A DNA stretch of 64,000 bases, from contig CAVOFT010000001.1 in NCBI GenBank assembly GCA_963695095.1, forward strand, positions 1,565,881-1,629,880, in the 5' to 3' direction. The notes below the pieces were generated by a model that saw only the letters and a list, made by a program, of their open reading frames with translations, was not told where the DNA came from and ran no database searches. Shown piece by piece: positions 33,678-55,651 of the stretch. The position numbers were made by a program, and so were the translations under genes. The stretch's first letter is position 1. Every line of letters starts with the position of its first letter. Origin of the DNA: an uncultured bacterium (GTDB taxonomy: Bacteria > Krumholzibacteriota > Krumholzibacteriia > JACNKJ01).

Positions 33678-35108
33678 ATGAAACGCATTACCCTGGTCGC
33701 AATCACCCTGGCCGCCCTGGTGCCGGCCCTGGTCGGCTGCCAGTTCCTCTTCACTCCGGACAGCGAGGAGGCAAGCCCCAGCTCCGCGCGTCGTCGAGAT
33801 GCCCGCGGCGGCGCCGCTGCCCGCCGCCGGCGCCCTCGAGGCCGCCCTGCTGCGCTTCCATGTTCGCCAGGCGAGCAACCAGTGGCTCTACCTGCACCGC
33901 GTCACGGCGCCCTGGACCGAGCAGAGCGTCACCTGGAACAACTTCGGCGCGGCCTACGACCCCTCGCCCATCGATTCCGTGCTCGTCGACGCGGCGGGCT
34001 GGTTCGAATTGCCGCTGACCGAACGGGTGCTCGCCTGGGGCACGGGCGCCGAGAGCTACCATGGCTTGCTGCTGCGCCACGGCGCGCTGGCCACGCCGCG
34101 CAGCGTCATCGACAGCCGCGAGGACGCCGCCTCGCCGCCGCGGCTGCTGCTCTGGATGCGCGGTCCGACCGGCCTCATCGCCGACAGCCTCGCGGCCGCG
34201 GCGGACGCCTTCATCTGGCGCGCCCAGCCAGGCAGCAACTACGGCGACCGCAATCCGCTCTACGCGGGCTGGGCCCAGCTCCAGGCCGGCATCGAGATGC
34301 AGGCCCTGCTGCGCTTCGACCTGCCGGTCTTCCCGACCACGGCCACCCTGGGCGACCGCGTCTGGCTCGACGCCGATGCCGACGGCCTCCAGGATCCCGA
34401 GGAAGCCGGGCTCGGCGGCATCACCGTCGAGTTGCAGGATCCCCTGCGCCGCCTGCTCCTGAGCGCGGTCAGCGACAGCAGCGGCGCCTATGCCTTCGCG
34501 GACCTGGAGCCCGGCGATTACCTGCTGCGCGTCGCAGCTCCCGGCGGGCTACGCTGGCGACGCTCGCCCAGCAGGGCGATGACCCTGCCCTCGACAGCGA
34601 TCTCGATCCGGGCAGCGGCTTCACGCCGGTCTTCAGCTCGCTCGCCGGCCAGTCCGATCTCGATCGGGACATCGGCCTGCGCCCCGCGCCCGTCGCGCAC
34701 TGGACGCCGCGCAGCGTGGGCTTCTGGATTCGCCACGCCGGACAGGGCCACGGCCACGGGGAGGATCTGGTGACCCCGCTCCTGCCGCTCTGGCTGGGCA
34801 GCCCCGCCGGCGCCAAGAGCCTGGAGGTGGCCGATGCCGGCCTGGCCGTGGCCGTGCTGCGCCAGCAGCTCCGGGATCGCTGCGAGGAGGGCGCGAATCC
34901 CATCACCGCGCTGCGGGCGCAGCTGCTGGCGGTCAAGCTCAACCTCGCCATGGGCGCCGAGGGCGAGCTGGCGGAGCTGCTGGCCGCCAGCGACGGCTTC
35001 CTGGCCGAACATGACCCGTCCGCCTGGTCCGGTCTGAGCCGCGCCGAGAAGCGGCAGGTCACTCAGTGGACGCGCCAGCTCAAGCGCTTCAACCAGGGCC
35101 GCGACTAG
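33678..35108 (+). CDS. lipoprotein with DNRLRE-like and SdrD-B (Cna-B)-like domains (two frame changes)
   Basis: Lipobox LVGC; middle part (…NYGDRNPLYAGW…, VWLDADADGLQDPEE…) is in ORF 33799..34773, N- and C-terminal parts in ORF 33114..35108; shifts near 33790 and 34550. Confidence 0.6.
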   Translation: MKRITLVAITLAALVPALVGCQFLFTPDSEEASPSSARRRDARGGAAARRRRPRGRPAALPCSPGEQPVALPAPRHGALDRAERHLEQLRRGLRPLAHRFRARRRGGLVRIAADRTGARLGHGRRELPWLAAAPRRAGHAAQRHRQPRGRRLAAAAAALDARSDRPHRRQPRGRGGRLHLARPARQQLRRPQSALRGLGPAPGRHRDAGPAALRPAGLPDHGHPGRPRLARRRCRRPPGSRGSRARRHHRRVAGSPAPPAPERGQRQQRRLCLRGPGARRLPAARRSSRRATLATLAQQGDDPALDSDLDPGSGFTPVFSSLAGQSDLDRDIGLRPAPVAHWTPRSVGFWIRHAGQGHGHGEDLVTPLLPLWLGSPAGAKSLEVADAGLAVAVLRQQLRDRCEEGANPITALRAQLLAVKLNLAMGAEGELAELLAASDGFLAEHDPSAWSGLSRAEKRQVTQWTRQLKRFNQGRD

Positions 35109-35136: not shown

Positions 35137-35685
35137 CTATGCCTCGCGCGAGCGGCCCCGCCACCACTGGGCGATCAGGTAGAGCCCGTAGAGCACCAGC
35201 GCGACGGGCCACCAGTCCTGGAGCCAGTCCAGCGAGTAGTCGTAGCGCGTGTGGGCGACGAGCAGGGCACCGATGGCGATGAGCAGCAGCCCGCCCAGCA
35301 GCGAGCCGCCCACGGGCAGCTTCATGTCCTTGGGCATCTCGAGGGCGGTGACCCCTTCAACGGCCTGATTGAAGAGCGCCGCCCGCCGGCCGGCGTCGAT
35401 GACGCTGAAGAGCCAGAAGAAGGCCAGGAAGAGCCCCACCAGCGGCGCCACCTTGCCGAGGTCCATGTTCAGCATCGTCATGCACAGGGCCACGACGATG
35501 GCGTGCGCGAAGCCGCGCTGGTAGTAGCCGATGTAGACCTGCCCCAGACCCGGGAAGAGCGAGAGCACGCTGGCCAGGGTGGGGGATTTGTACAAGCTGC
35601 TGCGGCGCAGGGGCCGGGGCGCAGCGGCCGCCGGCCGCGCGCCCTCCAGGGCGCCCTCGCCGCGCGTCTCGGGATGCTCGAACAT
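35137..35685 (-). CDS. hypothetical membrane protein (FPGLGQ motif)
   Basis: In-frame ATG within ORF 35137..35781; 3-4 hydrophobic helices; last gene of the sigma/anti-sigma operon. Confidence 0.45.
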   Translation of the reverse strand: MFEHPETRGEGALEGARPAAAAPRPLRRSSLYKSPTLASVLSLFPGLGQVYIGYYQRGFAHAIVVALCMTMLNMDLGKVAPLVGLFLAFFWLFSVIDAGRRAALFNQAVEGVTALEMPKDMKLPVGGSLLGGLLLIAIGALLVAHTRYDYSLDWLQDWWPVALVLYGLYLIAQWWRGRSREA

Positions 35686-35707
35686 GTCTGCCTCCTCGGT
35701 CAGGGAA

Positions 35708-36538
35708 TCAGGGCTGGCCGCTCGAGGCGGCATCGTTTGCTGTCGTCGTCGGGGCCGGGGCAGCCTGCCAGCCGCGGCCAATGCGCTTGAGGTCGCCCAG
35801 GATCTCGCTCAGGCGACTCGAGGCCGCCGCCAGGTCGCGCCGGCGCAGGCTGTCCAGCAGCTCGCGCAGATCCCGCCACAGCTCGCCCGCCAGCGGCGCC
35901 ATGCGCGAACGCCAGGCTGTCACGCGCGCGGACAGGCCGCTGCGCGCGGCGCCGATGCTGCGGGCGCCGCTGTCCAGGGCGGCGTCACCCACGGTGGCCA
36001 GCGTGTCCGTCACCCGGGAGAAGTCCAGGGGCAGGGCCGAGGCCAGGGTGCGCGGATCCTGGCGCAAGAGGTCCAGGGCGCGCTCGGGCGCCTGGCGCAG
36101 CGGGGAGACGGGCGTGGCCGTCAAGGCCACGACGATCAAGGTGCCGGCGTAGGCGGCCTCGAAGGCGAAGCGCGGCCGCCGCCAGCAGCGGCGCCACCAG
36201 GCAGTGATGCGCTCGTCGAGACGGGGCAGGGCGCTCCGCTCGTCTTCCCGGGCCATCGCCGCCAGCAACTCTGCCGCGAAGTCGGCATCGGGCTCGAGCG
36301 AGGCCAGGGCGGGCAGCGCGCGGGCCAGCCAGGCGAGGCCCTCCGCCAGTGCCCGGCAGGGCGCGCAGTGCGCCAGGTGGGCGGCGAGCAGGGCCGTCTC
36401 CTCGGCGCTGAGCTCGCCGTCCGTCACGGAGGGCAGCAGGGCCTCCGCCCGCGCGCAGGGGCTGCCGCTGGTGGCGGCGAGGATGGCCGCCGTCAGGGCT
36501 TCCTGGTCCAAGCGGGGACCATCGTCGAGCGGGCGCAT
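35708..36538 (-). CDS. membrane-bound zinc-binding anti-sigma factor (ZAS family)
   Basis: HLAHCAPC (H-x3-C-x2-C) plus upstream Cys; one TM segment; immediately downstream of the ECF sigma gene. Confidence 0.65.
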   Translation of the reverse strand: MRPLDDGPRLDQEALTAAILAATSGSPCARAEALLPSVTDGELSAEETALLAAHLAHCAPCRALAEGLAWLARALPALASLEPDADFAAELLAAMAREDERSALPRLDERITAWWRRCWRRPRFAFEAAYAGTLIVVALTATPVSPLRQAPERALDLLRQDPRTLASALPLDFSRVTDTLATVGDAALDSGARSIGAARSGLSARVTAWRSRMAPLAGELWRDLRELLDSLRRRDLAAASSRLSEILGDLKRIGRGWQAAPAPTTTANDAASSGQP

Positions 36539-36541
36539 CGC

Positions 36542-37123
36542 TCAGCCTCCCGGGGTTTCGCCGAGGGGGGCGGGCGGACCACCCAGCGCGCGCAGCGCGC
36601 GGGCCAGTTCCAGGCGGGCGCGGCTGGCGCGGGACTTCACGGTCCCCAGGGGCACGTCGAGCAGCGCCGCGATTTCCTCGAGCGGCAGCGCCTGCATCTC
36701 CTTGAGGACGATCAGCTCGCGATTGAGGGGGCTCAGCTCGTCCATGGCGCGCAAGAGCAGACGCCGGCGCTCGTCCGCCTCCCAGTGCTCGGCGGCGCTG
36801 GGCGAGGGGTCCGCCAGCGCGTGCGCGCTCTCCACGGGCAGATCCTGGCGGGGCGGCCGCGCCTGGCGGCGGCGCAGCGCGTCCAGGCTTGCGTTGCGGG
36901 CTATGGCCAGCAGCCAGGCCTCGAAGCGCTCGCTCTCGCGACAGTGCTCCAGATTCCGCCAGACGCGCAGGAAGATCTCCTGGGCCAGGTCGCGGGCCTC
37001 CTCGCGATCGCCCACGTAGGCGCTGGCGATGCCGAAGATGCGTGACTGGTACCTGCGCACGAGAAGCTCCCAGGCCAGGGGATCGCCTTGCCGGCAGCGA
37101 GCGATGAGGGTGGCCAGATCCAT
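36542..37123 (-). CDS. ECF-type RNA polymerase sigma factor
   Basis: Sigma-70 region 2 and region 4 sequence (…RYQSRIFGIA…, …LPLEEIAALLDVPLGTVKSR…). Confidence 0.8.
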   Translation of the reverse strand: MDLATLIARCRQGDPLAWELLVRRYQSRIFGIASAYVGDREEARDLAQEIFLRVWRNLEHCRESERFEAWLLAIARNASLDALRRRQARPPRQDLPVESAHALADPSPSAAEHWEADERRRLLLRAMDELSPLNRELIVLKEMQALPLEEIAALLDVPLGTVKSRASRARLELARALRALGGPPAPLGETPGG

Positions 37124-37249
37124 CGGGTCCACTCGGTTCGGGGCTGATGGCGCGGGGGTGCTTCCCCCTGCCTGGACAAGACGCAAGCGCAGAGGGGCAG
37201 GTTCGGTCAAGCCCGCGAAAATCTTCGCCCCCAACCGCACGTTCTCCAC

Positions 37250-37283
37250 TTGAAACGCTTGGGCATTTGGCTATATTGCCAAA
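37250..37283 (+). promoter_or_regulatory. arsR promoter candidate (TTGAAA-16-TATATT) with palindromic operator TTTGGC-N6-GCCAAA over the -10
   Basis: Perfect 6-6-6 inverted repeat ~30 nt upstream of the arsR start, centred on TATATT. Confidence 0.45.
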
Positions 37284-37313
37284 CATCCCAGTTGAACCCC
37301 GGAGGTGCCCGAC

Positions 37314-37634
37314 ATGGCGGTTTCGGTTCAAGCTCGCTTCGGCGCTCGTGCCGAGGTGCTCAAGGCGCTCGCGCACCCGACGCGCCTGCTCGTCGTCGAC
37401 GAGCTCTCGCGCGGCGAGCGCTGCGTGGCCGAGCTGACCGAGCTGGCCGGCGCGGACATGTCCACCGTCTCGCGGCACCTCGCCCAGCTGCGCAACGCCG
37501 GCATCCTTCAGGACGAGCGCCGCGGCGCCTGCATCTACTACTCCCTCAAGTGCCCCTGCGTGCTGAACTTCTTCACCTGCATCGAGTCCGTGCTCCAGGC
37601 CAACGCCGACGCGAACTCGAGCGCGGCGCGCTAG
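37314..37634 (+). CDS. arsR: ArsR/SmtB-family metalloregulator
   Basis: Winged-helix sequence with metal-binding ELSRGERCVAEL; GGAGGT RBS before ATG 37314. Confidence 0.8.
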   Translation: MAVSVQARFGARAEVLKALAHPTRLLVVDELSRGERCVAELTELAGADMSTVSRHLAQLRNAGILQDERRGACIYYSLKCPCVLNFFTCIESVLQANADANSSAAR

Positions 37635-37644
37635 GGGGATCGGC

Positions 37645-38956
37645 GTGGCTGTCTTCTCCTGGCGGCGCGAGGGACGAGCGCTTGCGGTCATTGCGGGCGG
37701 CTTCCTCGCCGCCTACTTCCTGCCGGTGGGGCGGGCCCGCGTGGACGGCGCCATTCTGGAGTCCCTGCAGCTGCTGCGCTGGTACGCCCGCGAGCACGTG
37801 CTGCTCTGCCTGGTGCCGGCCTTCTTCATCGCCGGAGCCATCGGCGTTTTCCTGCGCAAGGACACGGTGTTGCGCTACCTGGGGCCCGGCGCGCCCAAGC
37901 CGCTGGCCTACGGCGTCGCCTCGGTGTCGGGTGGCGTGCTGGCCGTCTGCTCCTGCACGGTGCTGCCGCTGTTCGCCGGCATCTACCGCATGGGCGCCGG
38001 GCTCGGCCCCGCAGCGGCCTTCCTGTACGCCGGGCCGGCGATCAACGCGCTGGCCATCATTCTCACGGCGCGCATCCTCGGATTCGAGCTGGGCATCGCG
38101 CGCGCGGTAGGGGCGGTCGTCTTCAGCATCGTCATCGGCCTGGCGATGGCCCTCCTCTTCCGTGGTGGCGAAGCGGTGCGGGCGCAGGCGGCGATGCCCG
38201 CGGAGACGGCGGCCTCCAGGCCGTTGAGGCAGATCGGCGCTCAGCCTGGCCGCGATGCTGGCGGTCCTGATCTTCGCCAACTGGGGCGCGCCGGCCGCTG
38301 GCCTCGGCTTCTGGACGGCTGTCCACGCGATCAAGTGGCCCCTGACCGGGCTGGCCGCGCTGGCGCTCGGTCTCATGCTGGTCCGCTGGTTTGGGTTGGC
38401 CTGGCGGGAGCTGGCCTTGATCAGCCTGCCCGTGGCCCTGCTCGCGCTCGTCGGCCCCGGGCGCCCGCTCCTGCCCTTCGGGGTAGCGATCCTGCTGCTG
38501 GCCTGGCGCCTGGGGCGGCGTGGGGCGGAGGACGAACTGGGCGAATGGCTGGCAGCCAGCTGGGGCTTCGCACGGCAGATCCTGCCCCTGCTGCTCGGCG
38601 GCATCCTGGTCGCCGGCCTGCTGCTCGGCCGCCCCGGCGGTGAGGGGCTTATTCCCTCCGCCTGGGTGGCGCGCGCGGTGGGGGGCAATTCGATCGGCGC
38701 CAATCTCTTCGCGGCCGTGGCGGGGGCCTTCATGTACTTCGCCACCCTGACGGAGATCCCCATTCTCCAGGGACTGCTGGGCTCCGGGATGGGCAAGGGC
38801 CCGGCGCTCGCGCTGCTGCTGGCCGGGCCCGCGCTCTCGCTGCCCAGCATGCTCGTCATCGGCGGCATTCTCGGCCTGCGCAAGACCTTCGTCTTCATCG
38901 TGCTCGTGGTCGCCATGGCGACGCTGACCGGGCTTCTCTACGGAGCCCTCTTCTAG
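37645..38956 (+). CDS. DUF318-family permease, ArsP-like (one +1 frame change)
   Basis: Polytopic membrane protein with VCSC motif; N-half in ORF 37645.., C-half in ORF 38255..38956; shift near 38200. Confidence 0.7.
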
Positions 38957-38966
38957 GGAGGATGCG

Positions 38967-39200
38967 ATGCACAAGCTGCAGATCCTGGGCACGGGTTGCC
39001 CCAAGTGCCGGCAGCTCGAAGCCAATGCGCGGGAGGCGGCAGCTGCCGCCGGCGGCGACTGGGCGGTGGAGAAGATCAGCGACCTGAACGCGATCATCGC
39101 CTTCGGGGTGATGATGACGCCCGCCCTCGCCATCGACGGCGAGGTGAAGTCCACGGGCAAGGTGCTCTCGCCCGAGGCCATCCGGGCGCTGCTGCCATGA
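38967..39200 (+). CDS. redox-active disulfide protein 2 (small thioredoxin-like)
   Basis: 77 aa with ILGTGCPKC. Confidence 0.75.
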   Translation: MHKLQILGTGCPKCRQLEANAREAAAAAGGDWAVEKISDLNAIIAFGVMMTPALAIDGEVKSTGKVLSPEAIRALLP

Positions 39201-39676
39201 GGCGCGCTCGCCTGCTCGTCGCAGCGCTGCTGATGGCCTTGCTGGCGCCCGCCGCCGTCGGAGAGCCGGTGGGGGAGCCCGTGCCGGCGCCTGGGGACTC
39301 GCTGGCGACGCCTGCCGGCGGCGTCGAGTTGATCTACTTCCACGCCACCCTGCGCTGCGAGACCTGCCTCGCCTTGGAGGCCAGCATCGAGCGCTGCCTG
39401 CGCGCGGAGTTCGCGGCCGAGCTCGCGCAAGGCAGGCTGGCCTGGCGCAGCCTGGACTACGAGCTCGGCGAAGGGCGCGCCTTGCACGCGAACCTGGAGC
39501 TGAGCGGCAGCGAACTCGTGATCCGGCGGCGCGCGGCCGGCGAGAGTCGTGACGCGCAGCCGATCCGCAGCGTCTGGAATGCGCCGGAGGCCGTTGCGCT
39601 CTGCGACTCCCTCCAGCCCATCGTCACGCAGTACCTCCGCGCCCAGCCGGACGCCGAGGCAACCAGCGGCCGCTGA
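39197..39676 (+). CDS. hypothetical secreted protein with CxxC (CETC)
   Basis: In-frame ATG in ORF 38996..39676 overlapping the previous stop; signal peptide MRRARLLVAALLMALLAPAAVG. Confidence 0.45.
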   Translation: MRRARLLVAALLMALLAPAAVGEPVGEPVPAPGDSLATPAGGVELIYFHATLRCETCLALEASIERCLRAEFAAELAQGRLAWRSLDYELGEGRALHANLELSGSELVIRRRAAGESRDAQPIRSVWNAPEAVALCDSLQPIVTQYLRAQPDAEATSGR

Positions 39677-39700
39677 GCGAGCCGCATCCGAGGAGCAGCG

Positions 39701-40183
39701 ATGAACCGGAGATTGCGCGTCGCGATCCTGCTGGTGGTGGCCCTGGCCGTGGCGGCCGTGCTGCTCTGGGGACGAGGCGCCGAGGCGCCCGGCCGTGCGG
39801 AGGCGCCGGGAGCGGCGCCGGTGGCGGCGGTCGCCGTGGCGCCTGCTGCCGGGGAAGCCGGCAAGCCGGCCGCGCTGCCGCGCCTGGTGGACCTGGGCTC
39901 GACCACCTGCATTCCCTGCAAGAAGATGGCGCCCATCCTCGCCGAGCTGGCCGCCGAGCAGGCCGGCCACCTCGAGGTGCTCGTCATCGACATCCGCGAG
40001 GATCCGGATGCGGCTGCCACCTACGGCATCCGCCTGATCCCGACGCAGATCTTCTTCGATGCGGGGGGCAAGGAACTCTGGCGGCACGAGGGCTTCATCG
40101 ACAAGGCCGCCATCCTCGCGCGCTGGGCCGAACTGGGCGTGGCGCTGCCCGGCGTCGCGCCCGCCGCGGAGCCAGCGGGATGA
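39701..40183 (+). CDS. membrane-anchored thioredoxin
   Basis: N-terminal TM helix then thioredoxin fold with CIPC active site. Confidence 0.7.
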   Translation: MNRRLRVAILLVVALAVAAVLLWGRGAEAPGRAEAPGAAPVAAVAVAPAAGEAGKPAALPRLVDLGSTTCIPCKKMAPILAELAAEQAGHLEVLVIDIREDPDAAATYGIRLIPTQIFFDAGGKELWRHEGFIDKAAILARWAELGVALPGVAPAAEPAG

Positions 40184-40875
40184 GCGAGGTCTTCAGCAGC
40201 CTGACCGGAGCAGTGCAGGGCGCCTGGCCCCTGGCCCTCGGCGCGGCTTTCCTGTGGGGCGTGCTCAGCATCGTGCTCAGCCCCTGCCACCTGGCCAGCA
40301 TTCCGCTCATCGTGGCCTTCATCGGGGGCCAGGGTCCGAGCAGCACGCGGCGCGCCGCGGCGCTGGCGAGCCTCTTCAGCCTTGGCATCCTGGTCACCAT
40401 CGCGGCGATCGGCCTGGCGACGGCCGCCCTCGGCCGCATGCTGGGCGATGTCGGCCGCGCCGGCAACTGGATCGTCGCGATCGTCTTCCTCGCGGTGGGC
40501 CTGCACCTGGTCGGCGTGATTCCAATGCCCGGCGGGCCCGCGCGGGTGGGCCTCGCGCGGCGCGGGGCGCTCGGTGCCCTGCTGCTCGGCCTCGTCTTCG
40601 GCATCGCGCTCGGGCCCTGCACCTTCGCCTACCTGGCGCCCATGCTGGCAGTCACGCTCTCCGCCGGCTCGGTGAGCCTCCTCTTCGGCAGTCTGCTGCT
40701 CCTGACCTACGGCATCGGCCACACGGCGGTGATCGCTGTCGCCGGCACCTTCACCCAGCTCGTCCAGCGCACGCTCGACTGGAACGAGCGATCACGGACT
40801 TTGGGCGTGATCCGGAGGATCTGTGGCGTACTCATCATCCTGGCGGGGCTCTATTTGCTCGCACTGGCGCGCTAG
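40180..40875 (+). CDS. ccdA: cytochrome c biogenesis/DsbD-type transmembrane electron transporter
   Basis: Two conserved membrane Cys (LSPCHLASIP, GPCTFAYLAP) in a six-TM core. Confidence 0.8.
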   Translation: MSEVFSSLTGAVQGAWPLALGAAFLWGVLSIVLSPCHLASIPLIVAFIGGQGPSSTRRAAALASLFSLGILVTIAAIGLATAALGRMLGDVGRAGNWIVAIVFLAVGLHLVGVIPMPGGPARVGLARRGALGALLLGLVFGIALGPCTFAYLAPMLAVTLSAGSVSLLFGSLLLLTYGIGHTAVIAVAGTFTQLVQRTLDWNERSRTLGVIRRICGVLIILAGLYLLALAR

Positions 40876-41389
40876 GCGATACGCCGGTTCGGCGCTGCTG
40901 ATCGCCGGCGGCCTCCTGGCCAGCGGCATGCCCGCGGCCGCGGCGACGCAGCGCCTGCCCGCGCTCTGGCTCAGCGACCTCCATGGCGGCCGCGCGCCCC
41001 TGGACAGCCTGCTCGGCGCGCGGCCGGCCCTGCTCCTCTTCTGGAGCACGCCCTGCCAGTCCTGTCTGGACAAGCTGCGCGCCGTCGAGGCCTTCGCCCA
41101 GGCGCGCGCCGAACAGGATCTCGCCCTGCTCATGGTCAACATCGACGCGCCGCGCAACAAGAACCAGATCGCACCCTTCTTGCATCGCTTCGAGTTCACG
41201 GCGCCTTGCTTCGTCGATCCCGAGCGCGCCGCCTTCCGCAAGCTCGGCGGCCGGGAGGCGCCCTACCTGGTGCTCCTTTCCGCGGAACGCGAGGTCCTCT
41301 ATCGCAGCGGCAGCCTTGATCGCCGCGATCTGACGGCCATTGCCGCCTTGCTCGAGGCTCAGGACTCGGCAGGCTCGGCGCATGACTAG
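40823..41389 (+). CDS. TlpA-like periplasmic thiol:disulfide oxidoreductase
   Basis: Redoxin fold with WSTPCQSC; start uncertain (track start overlaps ccdA by ~50 nt). Confidence 0.6.
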   Translation: MAYSSSWRGSICSHWRARRYAGSALLIAGGLLASGMPAAAATQRLPALWLSDLHGGRAPLDSLLGARPALLLFWSTPCQSCLDKLRAVEAFAQARAEQDLALLMVNIDAPRNKNQIAPFLHRFEFTAPCFVDPERAAFRKLGGREAPYLVLLSAEREVLYRSGSLDRRDLTAIAALLEAQDSAGSAHD

Positions 41390-41834
41390 AGCCGCGGTGC
41401 TGTTTCTCTGCACGGGCAACGCCTGCCGCAGCCAGATGGCCGAGGGCTGGGCGCGTCACCTGCACGGCAAGCGGGTCGATGCGGTATCGGCCGGCATGGC
41501 GCCCGCGGGCCTGGATCCCCGGGCCGTGCGTGTGATGGCGGAGGTCGGAGTCGACATCGGCGGCCAGCAGAGCAAGGGACTTGCCGAGCTGGGCAAGCGA
41601 CGCTTCGAGCTCGTCGTCACCGTCTGCGACCGGGCGCGGGAGGCCTGTCCCGTGCTGCCCGGCGCACGGCACCTGCACGCGGGCTTTCCCGATCCGCCGG
41701 CCCTCGCTCGCGGCGCGGCGAGCGAGGAGGAGGCTCTGGATCACTACCGGCGGGTGCGCGATGCCATCCGCGAGCTCGTCGCCGGCCTGCCGGCGCTGCT
41801 GGCCGCCGCGCGGGGCCCCGGAGGCCAGCGCTGA
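41382..41834 (+). CDS. arsC: arsenate reductase, thioredoxin-coupled LMW-PTP type
   Basis: [14 protein letters not shown]-loop. Confidence 0.85.
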
Positions 41835-43027
41835 TGCCCGCGGAAGCCTGTGTCAGCAAGCGCCCCGGAGGGCTGGGCGGCTTCGAGCGCTGGCTCACGC
41901 TCTGGGTGCTGCTGTCGATCGGGGCGGGCATCCTGCTCGGCAAGCTGGCGCCGGGCCTGGCGCGCTGGCTGGACGGCCTCGCGCTCCGCGTCGACGGCGC
42001 GCCGGTGATCAGCCTGCCCATCGCCCTCTGCCTCTTCTTCATGATGTACCCGATCATGGTCAAGATCGACTTCGCCGAGCTGCTGCGCGCCGGCCGCGGC
42101 GCGAAGCCGGTGGCGCTCACCCTCGTCGTCAACTGGGCGATCAAGCCCTTCACGATGCTCGCCATCGCGAGCTTCTTCCTCGGCGGCGTCTTCTTGCGCT
42201 TCATCGGTCCGGAGGCCGTGGACCTGGTCAAGCTGCCCCTCGGACTCGACCTGCCGGTGGGGGCGAGCTACGGCGCAGGCACCGTGGTGCTCGCCGATGG
42301 CGTCAAGCTGCTGGCCGTGCCGCTCTGGCGCAGCTACCTGGCCGGCTGCATCCTGCTGGGCGTGGCGCCCTGTACGGCGATGGTGCTGGTCTGGGGCTAC
42401 CTCGCCCGCGGCAACGACGGCCACACCCTGGTGATGGTGGCGATCAACTCGCTCGCGATGCTCCTTCTCTACGGACCGCTGGGCGGCCTGCTGCTCGGCG
42501 TGGGCCGCCTGCCCGTGCCCTGGCAGGCCCTGCTGCTCTCGATCGCCGTCTATGTCGCCCTGCCCCTGGTCGCGGGCTACCTCACGCGGCGCTGGCTGGT
42601 GGCCGCCCGCGGCGAGGCCTGGTTCGCCGAGCACTTCCTGCATCGGCTGACTCCGGTCACCATCGTCGCGCTGCTGACCACGCTCGTCCTGCTCTTCTCC
42701 TTCAAGGGCGAGACGATCCTCGCCGCCCCGCTCACGATTCTCTGGATCGCGGTGCCGCTCTTCCTGCAGACCCTCCTCATCTTCGGACTCACCTATCTCC
42801 TGGCCCACCGCCTGCGCCTGGACTACCGCGATGCGGCTCCCAGCGCGCTGATCGGCGCCTCCAATCACTTCGAGGTCGCCATCGCCACGGCCACGCTGCT
42901 CTTCGGCCTCGGCTCCGGCGCCGCGCTGGCCACGGTGGTGGGCGTTCTCATCGAGGTGCCGGTGATGCTGCTCCTCGTGCGGCTTTGCCTGCGCAGTCGT
43001 GGCCGCTTCGCCGCCTTCGCGCGTTGA
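41834..43027 (+). CDS. acr3: ACR3-family arsenite efflux transporter
   Basis: ACR3 signature …[14 protein letters not shown]… and ~10 TM helices. Confidence 0.9.
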
Positions 43028-43095
43028 CAGCAGCCCCCGGCGCGAGGCACCCTGGCCCGGCCGGCGCTCGGGCCGGCCTTCCCGGAGGGTATCGG

Positions 43096-44484
43096 ATGCC
43101 GCGACGCCTGCCTGCGCGCCTGACGCGCCGTCTCGCCCTGCTCTTCGCCCTGCTCGCGGCCGGCGCCGCCCACGCCGGGGCTGCGCCGCCGCGGCATGTC
43201 ATCCTGTGCATCGGCGACGGCATGGGCTTCAACCACGTCGCCCTGGCCAGCCTCTGGGCCGCGGGCCGGCCGGACGCGGCGCCCTTCGCCGACTGGCCGG
43301 TGCGTCTCGCCTTGAGCACCGAGCCCGCCGGCGCGCCGCCCTACTCGCCCGCCGGCTTCTGGAGCCAGTCCGGCCAGCGACGGCGCGGCATCACCGATTC
43401 CGCGGCGGCGGCCACGGCCCTCGCCACGGGGGTCAAGACGGCGAACGGAGTGCTGGGGCTCACCCCCGACGGCCGTCCCCTGCACAATCTCACCGAGTGG
43501 CTGGGTGAGCGCGGTCTCGCGACGGGGTTGGTCACGAGCGTGCCCTTCGTCCATGCCACGCCGGCCGGCTTCGTCGTGCACGTCGAGGACCGCGACGACT
43601 ACCGCGCCATCGCCCGGCAGCTCCTGCTGGAGAGCCGCCTGCGCGTGCTGATGGGCTGCGGCGATCCTGCCTACGCCGCCGACGGCCGGCCGCTCGAGCA
43701 GCCCCGGGGCTTCGGCAAGGTCGGCGGCCGCGAGCTGTGGGCGGGGCTGCTCGCCGGGGCGACGACCTTCGACCTGGACGGCGACGGCGCCATCGACGCG
43801 GAGCTGATGGATCTGGACGGCGACGGCCGGCGCGATCCCTGGCAGCTCGTCACGGAGCGCGCCGCGGTGCAGGCCCTCGCCGCCGGCCCGACGCCGCTGC
43901 GCCTGCTCGTCGTGCCGCGCGGCGGACTCACGCTGCAGGCCGAGCGCCCCGGCCCCCGCCATCGCGCGCCCTTCGCGGTGCCCTTCGATGAATCGCTGCC
44001 CACGCTCGCCGAGATGAGCCTGGCCGCGCTCAACGTGCTCGACACGGATCCGGACGGCTTCTTCCTCATGATCGAGGGCGGCGCCATCGACTGGGCGGCC
44101 CACGACAACGATGCGGGCCGCCTGGTCGAGGAGCAGCTTGCCTTCCATGCCGCCGTCGCTGCGGTGATGGACTGGGTCGCGCGGGAGAGCAGCTGGGAGG
44201 AGACCTTGCTCATCGTCACCGCCGACCACGAGACGGGCGGCCTCAGCGCGCCGGGCTGGGGGCGCCGACGCTGGCAGCCGCTGCGCTCGCGCGGCATCCA
44301 TCGCCTGGCGCGGCATCAGTGGGGCAGCAGCGATCACAGCGGCGCCCTCGTGCCGCTCTATGCGATCGGTTGCGGCAGCGAGACGCTGGCCGCGCTGGCC
44401 GAGGGCAGCGATCCGCGCCGCGGCCCCTACCTCGACAACACGGCGATCGCCCCGGCCATCCGGGCGCTCTGGCGGCATCGCTGA
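43096..44484 (+). CDS. alkaline phosphatase
   Basis: Signal peptide; active-site block ITDSAAAATALATGVKT; GGAGGG RBS before ATG 43096. Confidence 0.85.
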   Translation: MPRRLPARLTRRLALLFALLAAGAAHAGAAPPRHVILCIGDGMGFNHVALASLWAAGRPDAAPFADWPVRLALSTEPAGAPPYSPAGFWSQSGQRRRGITDSAAAATALATGVKTANGVLGLTPDGRPLHNLTEWLGERGLATGLVTSVPFVHATPAGFVVHVEDRDDYRAIARQLLLESRLRVLMGCGDPAYAADGRPLEQPRGFGKVGGRELWAGLLAGATTFDLDGDGAIDAELMDLDGDGRRDPWQLVTERAAVQALAAGPTPLRLLVVPRGGLTLQAERPGPRHRAPFAVPFDESLPTLAEMSLAALNVLDTDPDGFFLMIEGGAIDWAAHDNDAGRLVEEQLAFHAAVAAVMDWVARESSWEETLLIVTADHETGGLSAPGWGRRRWQPLRSRGIHRLARHQWGSSDHSGALVPLYAIGCGSETLAALAEGSDPRRGPYLDNTAIAPAIRALWRHR

Positions 44485-44537
44485 ACGGGAAAGGCCGCCG
44501 GCGCGCGGGCCGCGAACCCGCGCGCCGGAGCCAGGGC

Positions 44538-45716
44538 TTAGCCGCGCGGCGTGGCGGCGAGCTGTTCGAAGCGGGCGAGCTGCAGCTTGAGGTAGTCGCT
44601 GTCCGGGTTCAGCTGCAGGGCTTCGCGGATCAGGGTCAGCGCCTCCCCGCAGTCGCCGCGCGCATTGCAGAGCTCGGCCAGCGTGTCCAGGATGTTCGCC
44701 TTCTCGCCGCCCTCCGCCAGGGCCACGCCGCGGCGAGCGAAGGCTTCGCCCTCGGCCAGGGCGACCTCGTTCTCGAAGCACCACCAGGCGATCTCGTTGA
44801 GGGCGGCGGCCTCCTGCTCCCAGCCCGGGGCCATGCTCTTGCGCTTCCAGGCGAAGGCCTCGTCCTGGCGGCCGTCGATGAGCAGCGCGTGGTCGGCCAT
44901 CAGGCGGGCATGCAGGCGCTGCTCCTCGGCGTCCGTTGCGCCGGCGAGCCGCGCCGCGCCCAGCTTGAGCCCTTCCAGGTAGGGGCTGCGGTCCTCCTTG
45001 CCCGCCGTGGCCTGCCCCAGCAAGGCCACGGTCTCCATCACCTGCTGGCCGCTGCTGCGCGGATCGCCGATGACCGCGCGGGCCGGCTCCAGGAGGGCCG
45101 CCTCGCCGAAGAGCCCCGCCCGCTGGCCGCGGGCGATGAGCTCGACCATGGCCGGCGCCAGGTGATCCGAGCTGCCCAGCTCCTGGGCGCGGCGATACCA
45201 GGCGAGGGCTTCGCCGAAGGCGCCGCCGACCTGCTCGAGCTCGGCGATCTTCACTGCCGCCGCCGCCGTCGGTGTCTTCCGGAAGTCCCGGCGGCGCTCG
45301 ATGAGCGGTAGGGGCGCTGCCGTCGCGGCGCGCAGGGCCGTCAGGAAGGGCTCGGCGGCGCCATAGCCGAGCCAGCCATCGAGCAGGATACCGTCGGCAT
45401 CGACGAGCAGGAAGGTCGGATAGGCGTGGACGCCGTAGCGGCGAGCGAGGCCGATGCCCTCGCCCTTCTCGGCGTCGACAGGGAGCAGGATGGCCTGGGC
45501 GGCGATGTCCTGCCGGAAGGTCTCGCTGGCCTTCACCTCACGGGCGAAGGTCTGGCAGGAGCCTCACCAGGAGGTGCCGATCTCGAGCAGGATGGGCCGT
45601 CCGCTGGCGGCGGCCTGGGCGCCGGCGGCCGCCATGCTGTCGACGGTGTCGGCCACCGCGGCGCCGGCGGCGAAGGTGAAGGCGACGAGGAGGCTGGCGG
45701 CGAGCAGGGTTTTCAT
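44538..45716 (-). CDS. secreted thioredoxin-fold/TPR-like protein with in-frame TGA at the CxxC position (candidate selenoprotein)
   Basis: ORFs 45564..45773 and 44538..45536 share one frame; joined product …PILLEIGTSW-[TGA]-GSCQTFAREVKASETF…YPTFLLVD…; signal peptide MKTLLAASLLVAFTFAAGAAVA. Confidence 0.6.
45530..45550 (-). promoter_or_regulatory. SECIS-like hairpin candidate
   Basis: mRNA CCUUCGCC-CGUGA-GGUGAAGG (8 bp including one G-U, GU in the loop) begins 13 nt after the UGA. Confidence 0.35.
45564..45566 (-). other. in-frame UGA, candidate selenocysteine codon
   Basis: Sits at the first-Cys position of a W-C-x-x-C motif (W-U-G-S-C). Confidence 0.5.
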
Positions 45717-46584: not shown

Positions 46585-47598
46585 ATGCGGTGGGGCGTCG
46601 TTCTTGCTAATCTGGGTTCCTGGTCCGGGAATTCTCGGGTCCTTGCCGCCACCGCCGGCCCGACTCGGTGGCTGGCCAACACGAAGGGGTTTCCCACGAG
46701 CGCTTCCGCCGGTCATGGCGCCGAACGCCTTTCCGAGCGCCGCTTCCGCCGGAGCATGCGCCTCCTCGGCGCGGCTTCGACCGCCGCGCTGCTCTGGCTC
46801 TGCTGGCGCGGCGCCGGGTTCTACCTGACCGCGGATGCCGAGCGTCCCCTGCACGCGGACTACGAGCGCTGGCGGCCGGCTGGAGACATCGGCCACGGCC
46901 TGGGCATCCTCGGCTCCCTGATGATGGTGATCCTGCTCGGCTACAGCCTGCGCAAGCGCTGGCGCCCCCTGCGCGCGGCGGGGCCCATCTCGCGCTGGCT
47001 CAGCGTGCACATCTACCTGGGCATTTTCGGCCCACTGCTCGTCGTGCTGCACAGCGCCTTCAAGGTGAACGGCCTCGTCTCGCTGAGCTTCTGGTCGATG
47101 GTGGCGGTGGCGGCCAGCGGCGTCCTGGGCCGCTATCTCTATCTCCAGATTCCGCGCAACCTGCAGGGCGACGCGCTGGACCTGGCGGCCCTCGAGACCG
47201 AGGACGCCGCGCTGAACGCGGCGCTGGCCGCCGACTTCGGCCTCGATGCGCAGACCCTGGCTGGACTGCAGCGTCTGGGGGGAACCGGGGAAGCTCGATC
47301 CCTGGGCGCGGCCTTGCTCGCCTCGCTCGCCAGCGACCTCACGCTGTCCCTGCGCCTGCGTCGCTTCCTCGCCCAGCGGACGGCCGGCTTTCGCCTACCC
47401 GCGGGCGAGCGGCGCCGGCTCCTGGCCCTGGCTCGCCGGCGGGCGCTCCTCGCGCGACGGCGCTTGCTGCTCGAGCGCCTGGAGCGGATCTTCCACTACT
47501 GGCATGTGATCCACAAACCTTTCGCCGTCGTGATGCTCGCCATCATGGTCGTGCACGTGGGAGTGACCGTCCTGTTGGGCTACCGATGGATCTTCTAA
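46585..47598 (+). CDS. membrane protein with His-bearing TM helices (cytochrome b-like)
   Basis: ~5 predicted helices with His pairs (…IGHGLGILG…, …SVHIYLGIFGPLLVVLHSAF…, …HYWHVIHKPFAVVMLAIMVVHVG…); stop overlaps the next start (TAATG); start codon uncertain. Confidence 0.5.
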   Translation: MRWGVVLANLGSWSGNSRVLAATAGPTRWLANTKGFPTSASAGHGAERLSERRFRRSMRLLGAASTAALLWLCWRGAGFYLTADAERPLHADYERWRPAGDIGHGLGILGSLMMVILLGYSLRKRWRPLRAAGPISRWLSVHIYLGIFGPLLVVLHSAFKVNGLVSLSFWSMVAVAASGVLGRYLYLQIPRNLQGDALDLAALETEDAALNAALAADFGLDAQTLAGLQRLGGTGEARSLGAALLASLASDLTLSLRLRRFLAQRTAGFRLPAGERRRLLALARRRALLARRRLLLERLERIFHYWHVIHKPFAVVMLAIMVVHVGVTVLLGYRWIF

Positions 47599-49277
47599 TG
47601 CGGGGCGCGCTGCGCTGCGCTCTGCTCTGCCTCGCCTGCGCCTGGGCGACGCCGGCCCCTGCCCAGCTCTCGCCGGGGCCGCTGTCCACGCCCCACGCCG
47701 AGCTCGAGGGCCTCAAGCGCTGCACGAGCTGCCACGAGATCGGCGAGGGCGTGCGCGCGGACAAGTGCTTCGCCTGTCATCGCCAGCTCGGCGCGCGGAT
47801 CGCCGCGGGCCAGGGCCTGCACGCCGGTGCCGACTACGCGAACTGCATCGGCTGTCACTCCGAGCACCACGGGCGCGACTATCCCCTCATCCGCTGGCCC
47901 GGCGGCGAAGCCAACTTCGACCACGGGGCCGCCGGCTACACGCTCGTCGGCGCCCATGCCCGCCTCGGCTGCCGCGACTGCCACCGCGAGGCGTTCGTCG
48001 CCGGCGCTGCCGCGCTGAGGGCCGAAGGCAGCGATCCCGCGCGCAGCTTTCTCGGACTCGGCAAGACCTGCCTGGACTGCCACCAGGATCCGCATCGCGG
48101 CGAGCTGGGCGCGCGCTGCCTCGCCTGCCACGGCGAGGAGGCCTGGCGGCCCGCCGCCGGCTTCGACCACGCGAGCACGCGCTATCCCCTGCGCGGCAAG
48201 CACGCAGATGTGGCTTGCGAGAAGTGCCATCCGCGCAGCGGCGGCGCCGCGACGGGGGACCTGCACATCGCCTTCAAGGGCGTCGCCTTTGCCGATTGCC
48301 GGGACTGCCACCAGGATCCGCACGCCGGCCGCTTCAAGGAAGCCTGCGCGAGCTGTCACAGCGAGAGCGGCTGGCGGCAGGGCGCGAGCGCGCGCTTCGA
48401 TCACGAGCGCACGCGCTATCCTCTGCGCGGCCGGCACGCCGCGCTGGACTGCGGGGCCTGCCACAAGCCGGGCGTCCCGCACGCGCCCCTGGCCCACGCG
48501 CGCTGTCTGGACTGTCACGCGGACAAGCATGAAGGGCAGTTCAAGCTGGCCGGCGCGCTCAGGGATTGCAGCGATTGTCACGACGCCGGCATCAAGGGCT
48601 TCGCGCCTGCGAAGTTCGGTCCGGCGCAGCACGCCGCGAGTCGCTACCCCCTGGCCGGAGCGCACCTGGCCGTGGCCTGCCGCGACTGCCATGCACCCAC
48701 GGCCGCCTTCGCCGCCGGGCGCTTCCGCTACGCCGACACCAGCTGCAGCAGCTGCCACGCGGATCCGCACGGCAAGGCGCTCGCGCTCGCGGGTGAGGCC
48801 CGCCGCTGCGAGGCCTGCCACCAGGTGGCGAGCTGGCGCGCTGTGGCCTGGGATCATGCGCAGACGGCCTTCCCCCTGGCCGAGCGCCACGCCGAGATCG
48901 CCTGCCGCGCTTGTCACGAGCCGATCGCCGGCCAGCCCGCCGGGACGCTGCGTTTCGCCGGCCTGGGCAAGGACTGCGCGACCTGCCATGCCGACGTCCA
49001 CCGGGGGCAGTTCGTGCTGGCCGGCGAGCAGGCGACGCGCTGCGAGCGCTGCCACGACAGCCGCGATTGGTTCGCCGCTCGCTTCGAGCACAACCGCGAT
49101 GCGCGCTTTGCCCTGGACGGCGCCCACGCGCCCCTGGCTTGCACCGCCTGCCACCAACCCCTCGCAGCTGCAGCGGGCCAGCCGGTCACGCTGCGCTACA
49201 AGCCGCTGCCGACGGACTGCAAGTCCTGTCATCCGGACCTCGTCCCGGCAGCGTCCACGCAAGGAGATCGGCCATGA
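47598..49277 (+). CDS. multiheme c-type cytochrome (~20 CxxCH)
   Basis: Signal peptide MRGALRCALLCLACAWATPAPA; ~20 CxxCH in repeated FDHxxTxYPLxGxHxxxxCxxCH modules. Confidence 0.85.
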   Translation: MRGALRCALLCLACAWATPAPAQLSPGPLSTPHAELEGLKRCTSCHEIGEGVRADKCFACHRQLGARIAAGQGLHAGADYANCIGCHSEHHGRDYPLIRWPGGEANFDHGAAGYTLVGAHARLGCRDCHREAFVAGAAALRAEGSDPARSFLGLGKTCLDCHQDPHRGELGARCLACHGEEAWRPAAGFDHASTRYPLRGKHADVACEKCHPRSGGAATGDLHIAFKGVAFADCRDCHQDPHAGRFKEACASCHSESGWRQGASARFDHERTRYPLRGRHAALDCGACHKPGVPHAPLAHARCLDCHADKHEGQFKLAGALRDCSDCHDAGIKGFAPAKFGPAQHAASRYPLAGAHLAVACRDCHAPTAAFAAGRFRYADTSCSSCHADPHGKALALAGEARRCEACHQVASWRAVAWDHAQTAFPLAERHAEIACRACHEPIAGQPAGTLRFAGLGKDCATCHADVHRGQFVLAGEQATRCERCHDSRDWFAARFEHNRDARFALDGAHAPLACTACHQPLAAAAGQPVTLRYKPLPTDCKSCHPDLVPAASTQGDRP

Positions 49278-50560
49278 TCGCCGGGACCGCTCGACTTCGC
49301 CGCGCTCTGCCCTGGCTGCTGCTGCCGCTGCCCTTCCTGATCCTGCTCGGGGCCGGCGATGATCAAGCTGGACAGAGCCCGCAGAGCCCGCAGAGCCCGC
49401 ACGGACCGCTTGCCATCGACTGCGCGCACTGCCATGCCACGGATAGCTGGCGCTTCGCCGCCGGCCGGGGCTTCGCGCACGACAGCACGGGCTATGTCCT
49501 CGAGGGCGCGCACGCCCAGGCCGATTGCGTCGGCTGTCACGGCGACCTGCGCTTCGGCCGCGTCGCCTCGGCCTGCGCGGATTGCCACCTCGACGTGCAC
49601 GCCGGCGAGCTGGGCTTCGACTGCGCCGGCTGTCACTCTCCGCACGATTGGCAGCCGACGGGCGGGACCCTGGCCCTGCACGCCGCGCGCGGCTTTCCCC
49701 TGCTCGGTGTCCACGCGCGGGTGGATTGCGAATCCTGCCACGTCGGCGCCAAGGGCGAGGAGTTCGCGGGCACGCCGAGCGACTGCTTCGCCTGCCACGC
49801 CGACGACTACGCGGCGACCTCGGCGCCCGACCACGGGGCGGCGGGCATGTCCACGGACTGCCTGAGCTGCCACTCCTCGGTGGCGCCTGGCTGGGGCGAC
49901 AGCAACTTCGATCACGATGCCTACTTCCCGCTGAGCGGCGCCCACGCTCGCCTGGACTGCCTGGCCTGTCACCAGGGCGGCTTCGGCGGCCAGCCGACCA
50001 GCTGCATCGGCTGCCACCAGGCCGACTACGACGGCGCGGACGATCCCGATCACCGGGCCGCCAACTTCGACACGGCCTGCCTCGTCTGTCACAGCACGCA
50101 GGCCTGGTCGCCGGCCACCTTCAATCACGCGGCGACGGCCTTTCCGCTCACGGGCGCGCACACGAGCGCGAGCTGCCTGAGCTGCCATGCCTCCGGCTAC
50201 GCCGGCACGCCGACGGACTGCTACGCCTGCCACCAGGGGGACTTCGAAAGCGCCGACGATCCGGATCACGCGGCCGCCGGCTTCAACACGCAGTGCGCAG
50301 TCTGCCACTCCACGGCGAACTGGTCGCCCTCCACCTGGGACCACGATCAGCTCTTCCCGATCTACTCGGGCCGCCATCGGGGCGAGTGGAACAGCTGCGC
50401 GGACTGCCACGTGCAGTCCACGAACTACGCCGAGTTCGAGTGCATCCTCTGCCACGAGCACAGCCAGAACGAAACCGACGGCCATCACGACAACGTGGAC
50501 GACTACGTCTACGAGAGCGCGGCCTGCTTCGACTGCCACCCGCGCGGCGAGGCCGATTGA
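49274..50560 (+). CDS. multiheme c-type cytochrome (~16 CxxCH)
   Basis: Signal peptide; ~16 CxxCH in the same module type; ATGA overlap with the previous gene. Confidence 0.85.
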   Translation: MIAGTARLRRALPWLLLPLPFLILLGAGDDQAGQSPQSPQSPHGPLAIDCAHCHATDSWRFAAGRGFAHDSTGYVLEGAHAQADCVGCHGDLRFGRVASACADCHLDVHAGELGFDCAGCHSPHDWQPTGGTLALHAARGFPLLGVHARVDCESCHVGAKGEEFAGTPSDCFACHADDYAATSAPDHGAAGMSTDCLSCHSSVAPGWGDSNFDHDAYFPLSGAHARLDCLACHQGGFGGQPTSCIGCHQADYDGADDPDHRAANFDTACLVCHSTQAWSPATFNHAATAFPLTGAHTSASCLSCHASGYAGTPTDCYACHQGDFESADDPDHAAAGFNTQCAVCHSTANWSPSTWDHDQLFPIYSGRHRGEWNSCADCHVQSTNYAEFECILCHEHSQNETDGHHDNVDDYVYESAACFDCHPRGEAD

Positions 50561-55599: not shown

Positions 55600-55651
55600 C
55601 CGCTGCCGCGCTGGGCCCGGGGCGAAGGGGGAAGGCAGCCTTCCCCCTTCG

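Follow-up and report, generated by a model that had tools for sequence, protein, structure and literature searches.

An association of CcdA, thioredoxin (Trx) and Trx_3 proteins with ars operons, together with the permease ArsP, was described by Castillo and Saier (2010; PMC2963123). Their survey was purely bioinformatic and comprised 8 instances in 7 organisms, 7 of the 8 with arsC; it tied the accessory genes to ArsC, discussed CcdA-mediated electron transfer and flagged a topological problem with ArsC. The ars operons are well studied, yet the CcdA and thioredoxin genes carried by many of them have no tested function. Here we analyse an operon of this kind at positions 37314-43027 of a 64,000-nt stretch of DNA (referred to below as the window) from an uncultured bacterium of the Krumholzibacteriota (assembly GCA_963695095.1, contig CAVOFT010000001.1, positions 1,565,881 to 1,629,880). 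Our comparison of the window with about 90 comparator loci indicates that the thiol relay encoded by this operon is directed to the periplasm and travels with the ArsP-ArsE pair, not with ArsC. The ars accessory module behind it is known, widespread and poorly understood, and the window contains a lineage-specific version of this module. The single operon is thus a variant of something already described, and it is the comparative pattern, together with the DsbD-fold identity of ArsG and the MerB-like fusions found in related loci, that makes the question of its function testable.

Another described system with similar components is the ArsEFG set of Shewanella putrefaciens 200, in which, as Chen, Zhang and Rosen reportedly found in 2019, ArsEF is a nitroreductase and ArsG an efflux permease. 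ArsE, ArsF and ArsG are curated NCBIfam families, where ArsF bears the name of a nitrophenyl compound nitroreductase subunit family and ArsG that of an aromatic aminobenzylarsenical efflux permease; ArsG is counted among the efflux transporters in PMC9144182 as well. An annotated example (PGAP annotation) is found on the Prevotella nigrescens plasmid NZ_CP072340.1 (L090:5902-8401), with the gene order arsR-arsF-arsG-arsE-arsP-arsC-acr3. As for the permease, ArsP of Campylobacter jejuni is a methylarsenite efflux permease (PMC4681449, summarised in PMC6205960). The preliminary description of the window, made from the sequence without database searches, had presented the arrangement as going beyond the canonical arsRBC. 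This novelty does not hold: the arrangement was noted in 2010, and ArsE, ArsF and ArsG are established families.

The locus is an ArsR-headed arsenic-resistance operon of a high-GC Krumholzibacteria-type genome (the G+C content of the window is about 72%). Nine co-directional genes lie on the + strand between 37314 and 43027, and the eight junctions between them measure, in gene order, +10, +10, -4, +24, -4, -53, -8 and -1 nt, with overlapping stop and start codons at several of them. The operon is headed by arsR (37314-37634), which encodes a 106-aa ArsR/SmtB repressor (PF01022, 53.3 bits with a cut-off of 22; NF033788, 84.7 against 55), followed by a long-form ArsP_1/DUF318 permease (37645-38956; PF03773, 135.4 bits for the N-terminal and 97.9 bits for the C-terminal half) and by a 77-aa thioredoxin-like protein of the ArsE family, also known as 'redox-active disulfide protein 2' or Thioredoxin_3 (38967-39200; TIGR00412, 93.2 against 62; motif CPKC). 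The subsequent four genes encode a secreted CxxC protein of the ArsF family (39197-39676, 159 aa; NF040494, 63.3 against 60; CETC), a membrane-tethered thioredoxin (39701-40183, 160 aa; PF00085, 47.7 bits; CIPC), a CcdA-type DsbD_TM membrane protein (40180-40875, 231 aa; PF02683, 41.9 against 27.1) and a secreted TlpA/AhpC-TSA-like redoxin (40823-41389, 188 aa; PF00578, 36.2 against 26; WSTPCQSC). The operon ends with an ArsC of the low-molecular-weight protein tyrosine phosphatase (LMW-PTP) type (41382-41834, 150 aa; PF01451, 60.4 bits) and the arsenite efflux permease Acr3 (41834-43027, 397 aa; TIGR00832, 367.5 against 282.8). The profile searches confirmed the identities and coordinates of the nine tightly spaced genes as well as the two motifs, CIPC and WSTPCQSC, quoted in the preliminary description. 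Four of the encoded proteins have a thioredoxin fold: ArsE in the cytoplasm, and three that are exported.

The distribution of export signals among these proteins is central to our argument: the tethered thioredoxin, the ArsF-like and the TlpA-like protein have signal or anchor N-termini, and ArsE and ArsC do not. ArsE matches PF13192 (84.8 bits) and the MTH895 structure (PDB 1ILO, E=5.9e-17), its CPKC motif lies close to the N-terminus (residues 11-14) and a signal peptide is absent upon inspection of the N-terminal sequence. The tethered thioredoxin begins with MNRRLR, followed by a single transmembrane (TM) segment at residues 5-23 and an Ala/Pro linker. In the natural fusion protein P0040 a TM segment, a Trx domain and CcdA follow one another, and the Trx domain leads into CcdA TM1 without a further TM segment; therefore, the Trx domain is situated on the side of the CcdA N-terminus. 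In CcdA and DsbD this side is the periplasm. Accordingly placed in the membrane, the Trx domain of the tethered thioredoxin is predicted to face the periplasm. Judged by its proteins' sequences, the relay is aimed at this compartment.

The membrane component has both a DsbD_TM Pfam match and one conserved cysteine each in TM1 and TM4; these two residues, Cys36 (SPCHL) and Cys147 (GPCTF), do not vary among 27 homologues. The loop that follows TM1 carries positive charge, and the protein matches Thermus CcdA (PDB 5VKV, E=4.3e-6). A Trx gene stands directly upstream of the CcdA gene in at least 60 of 80 loci, and this adjacency, together with the P0040 fusion, indirectly upholds a transmembrane transfer of electrons by CcdA to the tethered thioredoxin.

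The ArsF-like protein starts with an RR pair and a hydrophobic segment within residues 4-22, and four of its cysteines are invariant (54, 57, 67 and 136, that is CETC and two more). It shares 29% identity with the annotated ArsF of the Prevotella plasmid (tblastn, E=3e-8), and its NF040494 score is marginal (63.3, with the cut-off at 60) when compared to 131.8 for the Prevotella protein. No match was obtained in a sequence search of the PDB; the AlphaFold model has a pLDDT confidence above 90 over most of residues 41-150 and shows a thioredoxin fold in which helix 1 begins with CETC, and the top Foldseek matches of this model in the PDB are all thioredoxins or protein disulfide isomerase domains. 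The TlpA-like protein combines an AhpC-TSA/Redoxin fold with a CxxC motif (CQSC, residues 78-81) and an export signal, in which the N-terminal h-region and an AxA-type site are conserved. It falls far short of the TlpA/ResA equivalog cut-offs (NF047696, 27.5 against 230; NF002854, 24.1 against 170). All of its nine close homologues come from the same lineage and occupy the same operon position, and none was found among 80 loci from other phyla. The ten homologues of the ArsF-like branch are confined to the Krumholzibacteria-type lineage too, so the added TlpA-like redoxin and the divergent ArsF are the lineage-specific part of the operon. We also considered both proteins as widespread ars components and rejected this notion: the TlpA-like protein occurs only in Krumholzibacteria-type loci and an ArsF-like protein in 9 of 80 other loci.

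When the window is compared to the ArsEFG set, the shared features are a 77-aa ArsE, an exported CxxC protein of the ArsF family, ArsP_1, LMW-PTP ArsC and Acr3, all under ArsR, as well as a six-TM membrane protein of the DsbD superfamily with two conserved cysteines. Prevotella ArsG (NF040495, 292.9 bits with a cut-off of 200) is a DsbD_2/DsbD_TM protein with two cysteines, flanked by exported ArsF and cytoplasmic ArsE; it is 28% identical to the window CcdA, which itself has no NF040495 match at E<=0.01. The ArsEFG set has the same architecture as the window, since the ArsG family proves to be DsbD-like: a thioredoxin, a DsbD-fold protein and an exported thioredoxin, as expected for a thiol relay. 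Together with the periplasmic direction of the relay and its link to the ArsP-ArsE pair, this offers a testable alternative to the annotation of ArsG-like proteins as simple efflux pumps. The window differs from the ArsEFG set in its CcdA-type DsbD_TM protein, its own tethered CIPC thioredoxin, the extra TlpA-like redoxin, the gene order and the divergence of the ArsF-like protein; moreover, the nitroreductase and efflux roles published for ArsEF and ArsG are not those of a thiol relay. A cytoplasmic thioredoxin that reduces a membrane cysteine pair, which in turn serves periplasmic CxxC proteins, is also the layout of System II of cytochrome c maturation (CcdA-ResA/CcsX/TlpA) and of DsbD-DsbC/DsbG/CcmG. 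Unlike System II, the window operon contains no ResB/ResC or ccm genes, is putatively controlled by ArsR and belongs to a family of loci in which ars genes co-occur. The permease shares PF03773 and a vicinal cysteine pair in a TM segment (CSC in the window) with C. jejuni ArsP, but it is a long form of about 436 aa with some 100 extra, mostly hydrophobic residues between the halves, is always paired with ArsE and, in the window, is frameshifted.

The notion that the module does not depend on ArsC is illustrated by its distribution. Members of the window CcdA clade from different phyla share about 60% identity, and a pattern scan with one genome per species confirmed loci of this clade in the genomes of at least 590 species. 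The nine window proteins were mapped onto 80 of these loci, from Planctomycetota, Verrucomicrobiota, Armatimonadota, Hydrogenedentota, Thermodesulfobacteriota, Nitrospirales and others, and gene co-occurrence was counted in the 44 loci with full flanks; counts of arsenic genes are lower bounds, with ArsB, Grx-type ArsC, ArsA and ArsD outside the profiles used. A thioredoxin is found near CcdA in all 44 loci, ArsE and ArsR in 42 each and ArsP in 39. Acr3 accompanies CcdA in 25 of the 44 loci, LMW-PTP ArsC in 14, and at least one of Acr3, ArsC and ArsM in 27. A co-occurrence analysis had been proposed in the preliminary description; its result is that the CcdA clade is linked to ArsR, ArsP and ArsE more than to ArsC. 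ArsE and ArsP are adjacent in 31 of the 48 loci having both, and in the permuted loci L038 and L043 the ArsP-ArsE and Trx-CcdA genes each move as a pair, and the two pairs can change places. Our data thus share with the survey of Castillo and Saier (PMC2963123) the presence of the three accessory determinants and ArsP in ars operons; they differ in that the core is found in at least 590 species genomes and is linked to ArsP/ArsE instead of ArsC, and in that the window adds two secreted redoxins.

The same trend is seen in the close relatives of the window. The best match of the window CcdA (90% identical) is encoded on contig L001, an ENA contig labelled Krumholzibacteria VGXI01. The order arsR-arsP-arsE-arsF-like-trx-ccdA-tlpA-like is common to five related contigs (L001, L084, L086, L088 and L089), therefore it is not a chance arrangement. 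What follows at the 3' end varies: arsC-acr3 in the window, acr3 only in L001 and L084, acr3-arsC in L086/87, and arsR-CMD-multihaem cytochrome, with neither acr3 nor arsC, in L088/89. Because the relatives swap this 3' cargo, the seven-gene unit can be regarded as a stable module and arsC and acr3 as exchangeable. The gene arsC, present in the window at 41382-41834, is absent at the same junction in the two closest relatives, L001 (L001:9204-9213) and L084, where the stop codon of the TlpA-like gene abuts acr3; at this junction arsC is a gene-level presence/absence polymorphism. ArsC aligns with Bacillus subtilis ArsC (1JL3, E=1.2e-27) and keeps Cys10, Cys82 and Cys89, and its TIGR02691 score of 121.6 lies under the equivalog cut-off of 174.3, as is the case for a divergent member; it is a cytoplasmic enzyme of the thioredoxin-coupled LMW-PTP type. 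The TIGR00832 match of Acr3 covers model positions 2-326 of 327, and the protein is 95% identical to its L001 orthologue.

The region upstream of arsR contains a sigma-70-like promoter on the + strand (TTGAAA-16-TATATT, 37250-37277). No second promoter-like site was found in 36900-44700, for which shuffles predict 0.2; the one upstream of arsR is found inside a block kept in L001. Its -10 hexamer is overlapped by a palindrome (37266-37283) with the halves TTTGGCTAT and ATTGCCAAA, a candidate ArsR operator that is unique within the window (0 expected by chance). A 27-nt block including the palindrome is identical in L001, with diverged flanks, and the palindrome core TTGGCNATATNGCCAA is found upstream of arsR in six other loci (L001, L084, L086, L088, L089 and L068). 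A GGAGG ribosome-binding site precedes the arsR ATG at 37314. The terminator scan gave two matches only, both intragenic and at chance level, and no internal transcript ends are evident. The promoter, the palindrome and the terminator scan fit a single transcript that would be autoregulated by ArsR. In repressors of the R773 type the As(III) triad is formed by the CVC cysteines of helix 3 and one further cysteine. Among 58 ArsRs linked to the module, Cys37, Cys82 and Cys89 are kept in 97-100% and the second cysteine of CVC is found in 72%; the window protein has alanine there (CVA). The conserved Cys37/Cys82/Cys89 set would fit an S3 site unlike that of the R773 type.

With moderate confidence we favour an explanation in which the locus is an ArsR-repressed operon of three units and the relay acts in the periplasm and not for the cytoplasmic ArsC. 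The first unit would be the ArsP-type permease and its cytoplasmic partner ArsE, exporting trivalent (organo)arsenicals. In the second unit a cytoplasmic dithiol, either ArsE or a housekeeping thioredoxin, would reduce CcdA, which would pass the reducing equivalents over the membrane to the tethered periplasmic CIPC thioredoxin, and this protein would serve the two secreted thioredoxin-fold CxxC proteins of the ArsF-family and TlpA-like type. The third unit would be the exchangeable cargo for inorganic arsenic, the thioredoxin-type ArsC and Acr3. The relay could then be seen as a CcdA-based counterpart of the ArsE/ArsF/ArsG set. In the periplasm it might keep the cysteines of the envelope and of the permeases free and reduced while ArsP and Acr3 pump out trivalent arsenicals; alternatively, it might reduce arsenical substrates, an activity that ArsEF is reported to have on nitro-aromatic arsenicals. 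The data show what the genes are and how the operon is built, the conserved candidate operator, the export signals, the conserved cysteines and the pattern of co-occurrence; the way the electrons run, the protein that donates them in the cytoplasm and the substrate in the periplasm are what we infer here. The comparative findings suggest that thiol protection in the envelope, or arsenical chemistry in the periplasm, is a neglected side of arsenic resistance in anaerobes.

Several observations weigh against this explanation. The CcdA clade is known from sequences alone, and the topology was derived from simple hydropathy and charge rules and the fusion protein. The published role of ArsG, according to the NCBIfam name and, reportedly, to Chen, Zhang and Rosen (2019), is that of an efflux permease and not of an electron conduit. 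In 17 of the 44 loci no Acr3, LMW-PTP ArsC or ArsM was found nearby, in a search that did not extend to ArsB and Grx-type ArsC and so gives a lower bound on the arsenic link, and the inducer of the operon is not certain, given an ArsR that lacks the second cysteine of CVC. Finally, pairwise DNA alignment of the window permease with the intact 438-aa L001 orthologue places a single surplus base at about 38233 (CAG[A]TCGGCG), in agreement with three-frame translation.

This interruption, which the preliminary description had overlooked, splits the permease over two frames, the N-terminal half at 37645-38232 in frame 1 and the C-terminal half at 38234-38956 in frame 2. The protein has the PF03773 match and the vicinal cysteine pair in a TM helix that characterise ArsP_1, and its reading frame is not intact; the vicinal CSC motif is at residues 102/104 among about 11-12 hydrophobic segments, and the repaired protein would have the length of about 436 aa given above. 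In L001, L086, L088 and L089 the orthologue is intact (435-438 aa). The dN/dS ratio between the window and L001 is 0.20 in each half of the permease, and 0.14-0.19 in the neighbouring genes. A second case is the SdrD_B/CBM96-type gene at 33678-35102 of the window: with respect to its 481-aa L001 orthologue it has a frame change at about 34550 and possibly another near 33800, which suggests indel errors in the window assembly. The four relatives with an intact permease have contig names of short-read style, and the names of the window contig and of L084 look long-read. An assembly error is favoured because of the second frame change at about 34550, the intact short-read relatives, the dN/dS of 0.20 in both halves and the size of the contig, 3.61 Mb, that encodes an ArsF-like protein identical to that of the window, so the permease frameshift is probably an artefact. 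In L084 the permease is also split, into 200 and 233 aa (L084:6447-7761); the 1-nt insertion responsible is an independent one, placed 11 nt downstream of that in the window. This makes a recurrent systematic error or a tolerated natural split possible. The same contig has a fragmented acr3. A true pseudogene or a naturally split permease was considered and deemed less likely than an artefact, as both split assemblies have other frameshifts and dN/dS is 0.20.

One would argue that the relay serves ArsC, by regenerating this thioredoxin-coupled enzyme or by reducing arsenate in the periplasm, as was raised by Castillo and Saier and implied in the preliminary description. The conserved Cys10, Cys82 and Cys89, the location of arsC in the same operon with its start overlapping the stop of the TlpA-like gene, and the arsC genes in 7 of the 8 instances of 2010 all speak for it, and cytoplasmic ArsE could well reduce ArsC. 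However, three of the four thioredoxin-fold proteins have export signals and ArsC has none, the Trx-CcdA core is found without LMW-PTP ArsC in 30 of the 44 loci, and L001, L084 and L088/89 have the whole relay and no arsC. Because the acceptors are outside the cytoplasm and the module mostly occurs without ArsC, it is unlikely that the relay exists for the regeneration of the cytoplasmic enzyme. The anatomy of a trans-membrane thiol relay in an arsenic operon, as first described, is thus retained (a cytoplasmic thioredoxin-like protein, CcdA and extracytoplasmic acceptors), and its role as the reductant of ArsC is not. A somewhat better case can be made for a chain that carries the arsenical itself: As(III) or R-As(III) would be handed by dithiol exchange from ArsE to the CcdA cysteine pair, exposed alternately on each side, and on to the periplasmic CxxC proteins, as an export or chaperone chain. 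The homologous DsbD-fold ArsG is curated as an arsenical efflux permease and listed as an efflux transporter (PMC9144182), the CcdA cysteine pair is invariant and its partners are all CxxC proteins under a candidate ArsR operator, and 14 related loci encode a fusion of the tethered thioredoxin to a MerB-like domain, whose three-cysteine site resembles a ligand-binding site. On the other hand, electron transfer is the established role of those CcdA proteins that have been studied (PDB 5VKV), ArsP and Acr3 already provide the operon with two dedicated arsenical permeases, and the window CcdA lies outside the ArsG family. We therefore hold such a hand-over to be possible, though doubtful.

Cytochrome c maturation is the classical role of CcdA and of TlpA/ResA-like proteins, and a few kb downstream of the operon there are genes for multihaem cytochromes (window 47586-50458; also in L088), so that a housekeeping maturation or envelope thiol system of the CcdA-ResA/TlpA type could merely stand beside ars genes. 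This was rejected on neighbourhood evidence and is highly improbable: no ResB/CcsA-type gene is found in the operon or among recurrent neighbours, ArsR and ArsE are each found beside CcdA of this clade in 42 of the 44 loci, across many phyla, and the TlpA-like protein, far under the TlpA/ResA equivalog cut-offs, is encoded by a gene with codon overlaps with ars genes. No cytochrome c maturation genes are recurrent among the CcdA neighbours in the 82 mapped loci and none is present in the window operon, in agreement with the preliminary description, which had named such a context as the finding that would overturn it. The core module could also answer a thiophilic stress other than arsenic, for instance organomercury, copper/zinc or reactive sulfur species, with the arsenic genes as occasional passengers. 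The halves of ArsP_1 have weak matches to the SaoE and SO_0444 Cu/Zn efflux models, relatives have MerB-like fusions, the cysteine pattern of ArsR is non-canonical, the 17 loci mentioned above have no Acr3, ArsC or ArsM nearby and a copy on a Sulfuricella plasmid is placed in a multi-metal island. Nevertheless, Acr3, ArsC or ArsM is found in the same cluster in 27 of the 44 loci, the ArsE and ArsF families were curated from an arsenical-resistance system, and in the window the module is joined to arsC and acr3 by overlapping codons; we regard this explanation as improbable.

Returning to the periplasmic relay, a broader proposal can be put forward tentatively: the ArsP-ArsE and tethered-Trx-CcdA module may form a branch of arsenic resistance that is directed to the envelope. 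DsbD-fold proteins, ArsG among them, would have thioredoxin-fold partners inside and outside the membrane and would either carry electrons for a periplasmic chemistry specific to arsenic or pass R-As(III) between dithiols, and the MerB-like fusions could add the long-sought oxygen-independent activity that cleaves C-As bonds, or one that binds organoarsenicals. The tethered CIPC thioredoxin is fused to the MerB-like domain in 14 of the 82 mapped loci over which accessory genes were counted (among them L016:8493-9887, L013:7592-9007, L008:401-1834 and L010:7519-8982), with the thioredoxin next to CcdA. The MerB-like domain is C-terminal (PF03243, 62.6 bits; MerB2, PDB 5C17, E=2e-11), both catalytic cysteines are kept, and a cysteine occupies the position of Asp99, resulting in a three-cysteine site. 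It is possible that this fusion provides a periplasmic organo-metal(loid) binding or lyase domain within ArsR-controlled clusters. Other accessory genes in these 82 loci encode a Cys-rich DGC-domain protein (PF08859; 20 loci in other phyla, e.g. L082:7258-7647), a SurA-like-Trx protein (18), an FMN reductase with a twin-arginine-like N-terminal signal (PF03358; 15 loci in other phyla, e.g. L053:7891-8580), ArsM (15) and a short ArsP (9).

Two comparator loci deserve a separate mention. L085 is the Sulfuricella denitrificans plasmid pSCD (NC_022358.1), where a thioredoxin-CcdA pair at 54786-55894, its CcdA 58% identical to that of the window, is placed in a multi-metal island that also holds arsM, arsC and genes for RND efflux and CDF proteins. 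L069, from a Thermodesulfobacteriota genome, has an ArsF-ArsG-ArsE cluster and a Trx-CcdA pair 8 kb apart (L069:778-2168 and L069:9632-10693); therefore, two DsbD-fold systems can coexist.

The operon is followed, after a 68-nt gap, by a gene for an alkaline phosphatase of 462 aa with a signal-like N-terminus (43096-44484, + strand). It is kept downstream in L001, L084 and L086/87, with PF00245 found in the L001, L084 and L087 orthologues. The gap between acr3 and this gene has no terminator-like site in the scan, and the phosphatase may, with some uncertainty, be co-transcribed with the operon. On the other side of arsR, divergent from it, the - strand of the window (35140-37123) encodes an extracytoplasmic function (ECF) sigma factor, a zf-HC2 anti-sigma factor and a LiaI-LiaF-like TM protein, whose position is kept in L001, L084 and L086. 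These genes may form an envelope-stress unit that shares a 190-nt intergenic region with arsR. Further downstream, at 47586-50458, the window contains tandem multihaem-cytochrome-like paralogues: the orthologue of a 563-aa L001 protein comes first, and a repeat region of 30-33% identity follows it. In L088 an 837-aa multihaem cytochrome is encoded directly after the relay module.

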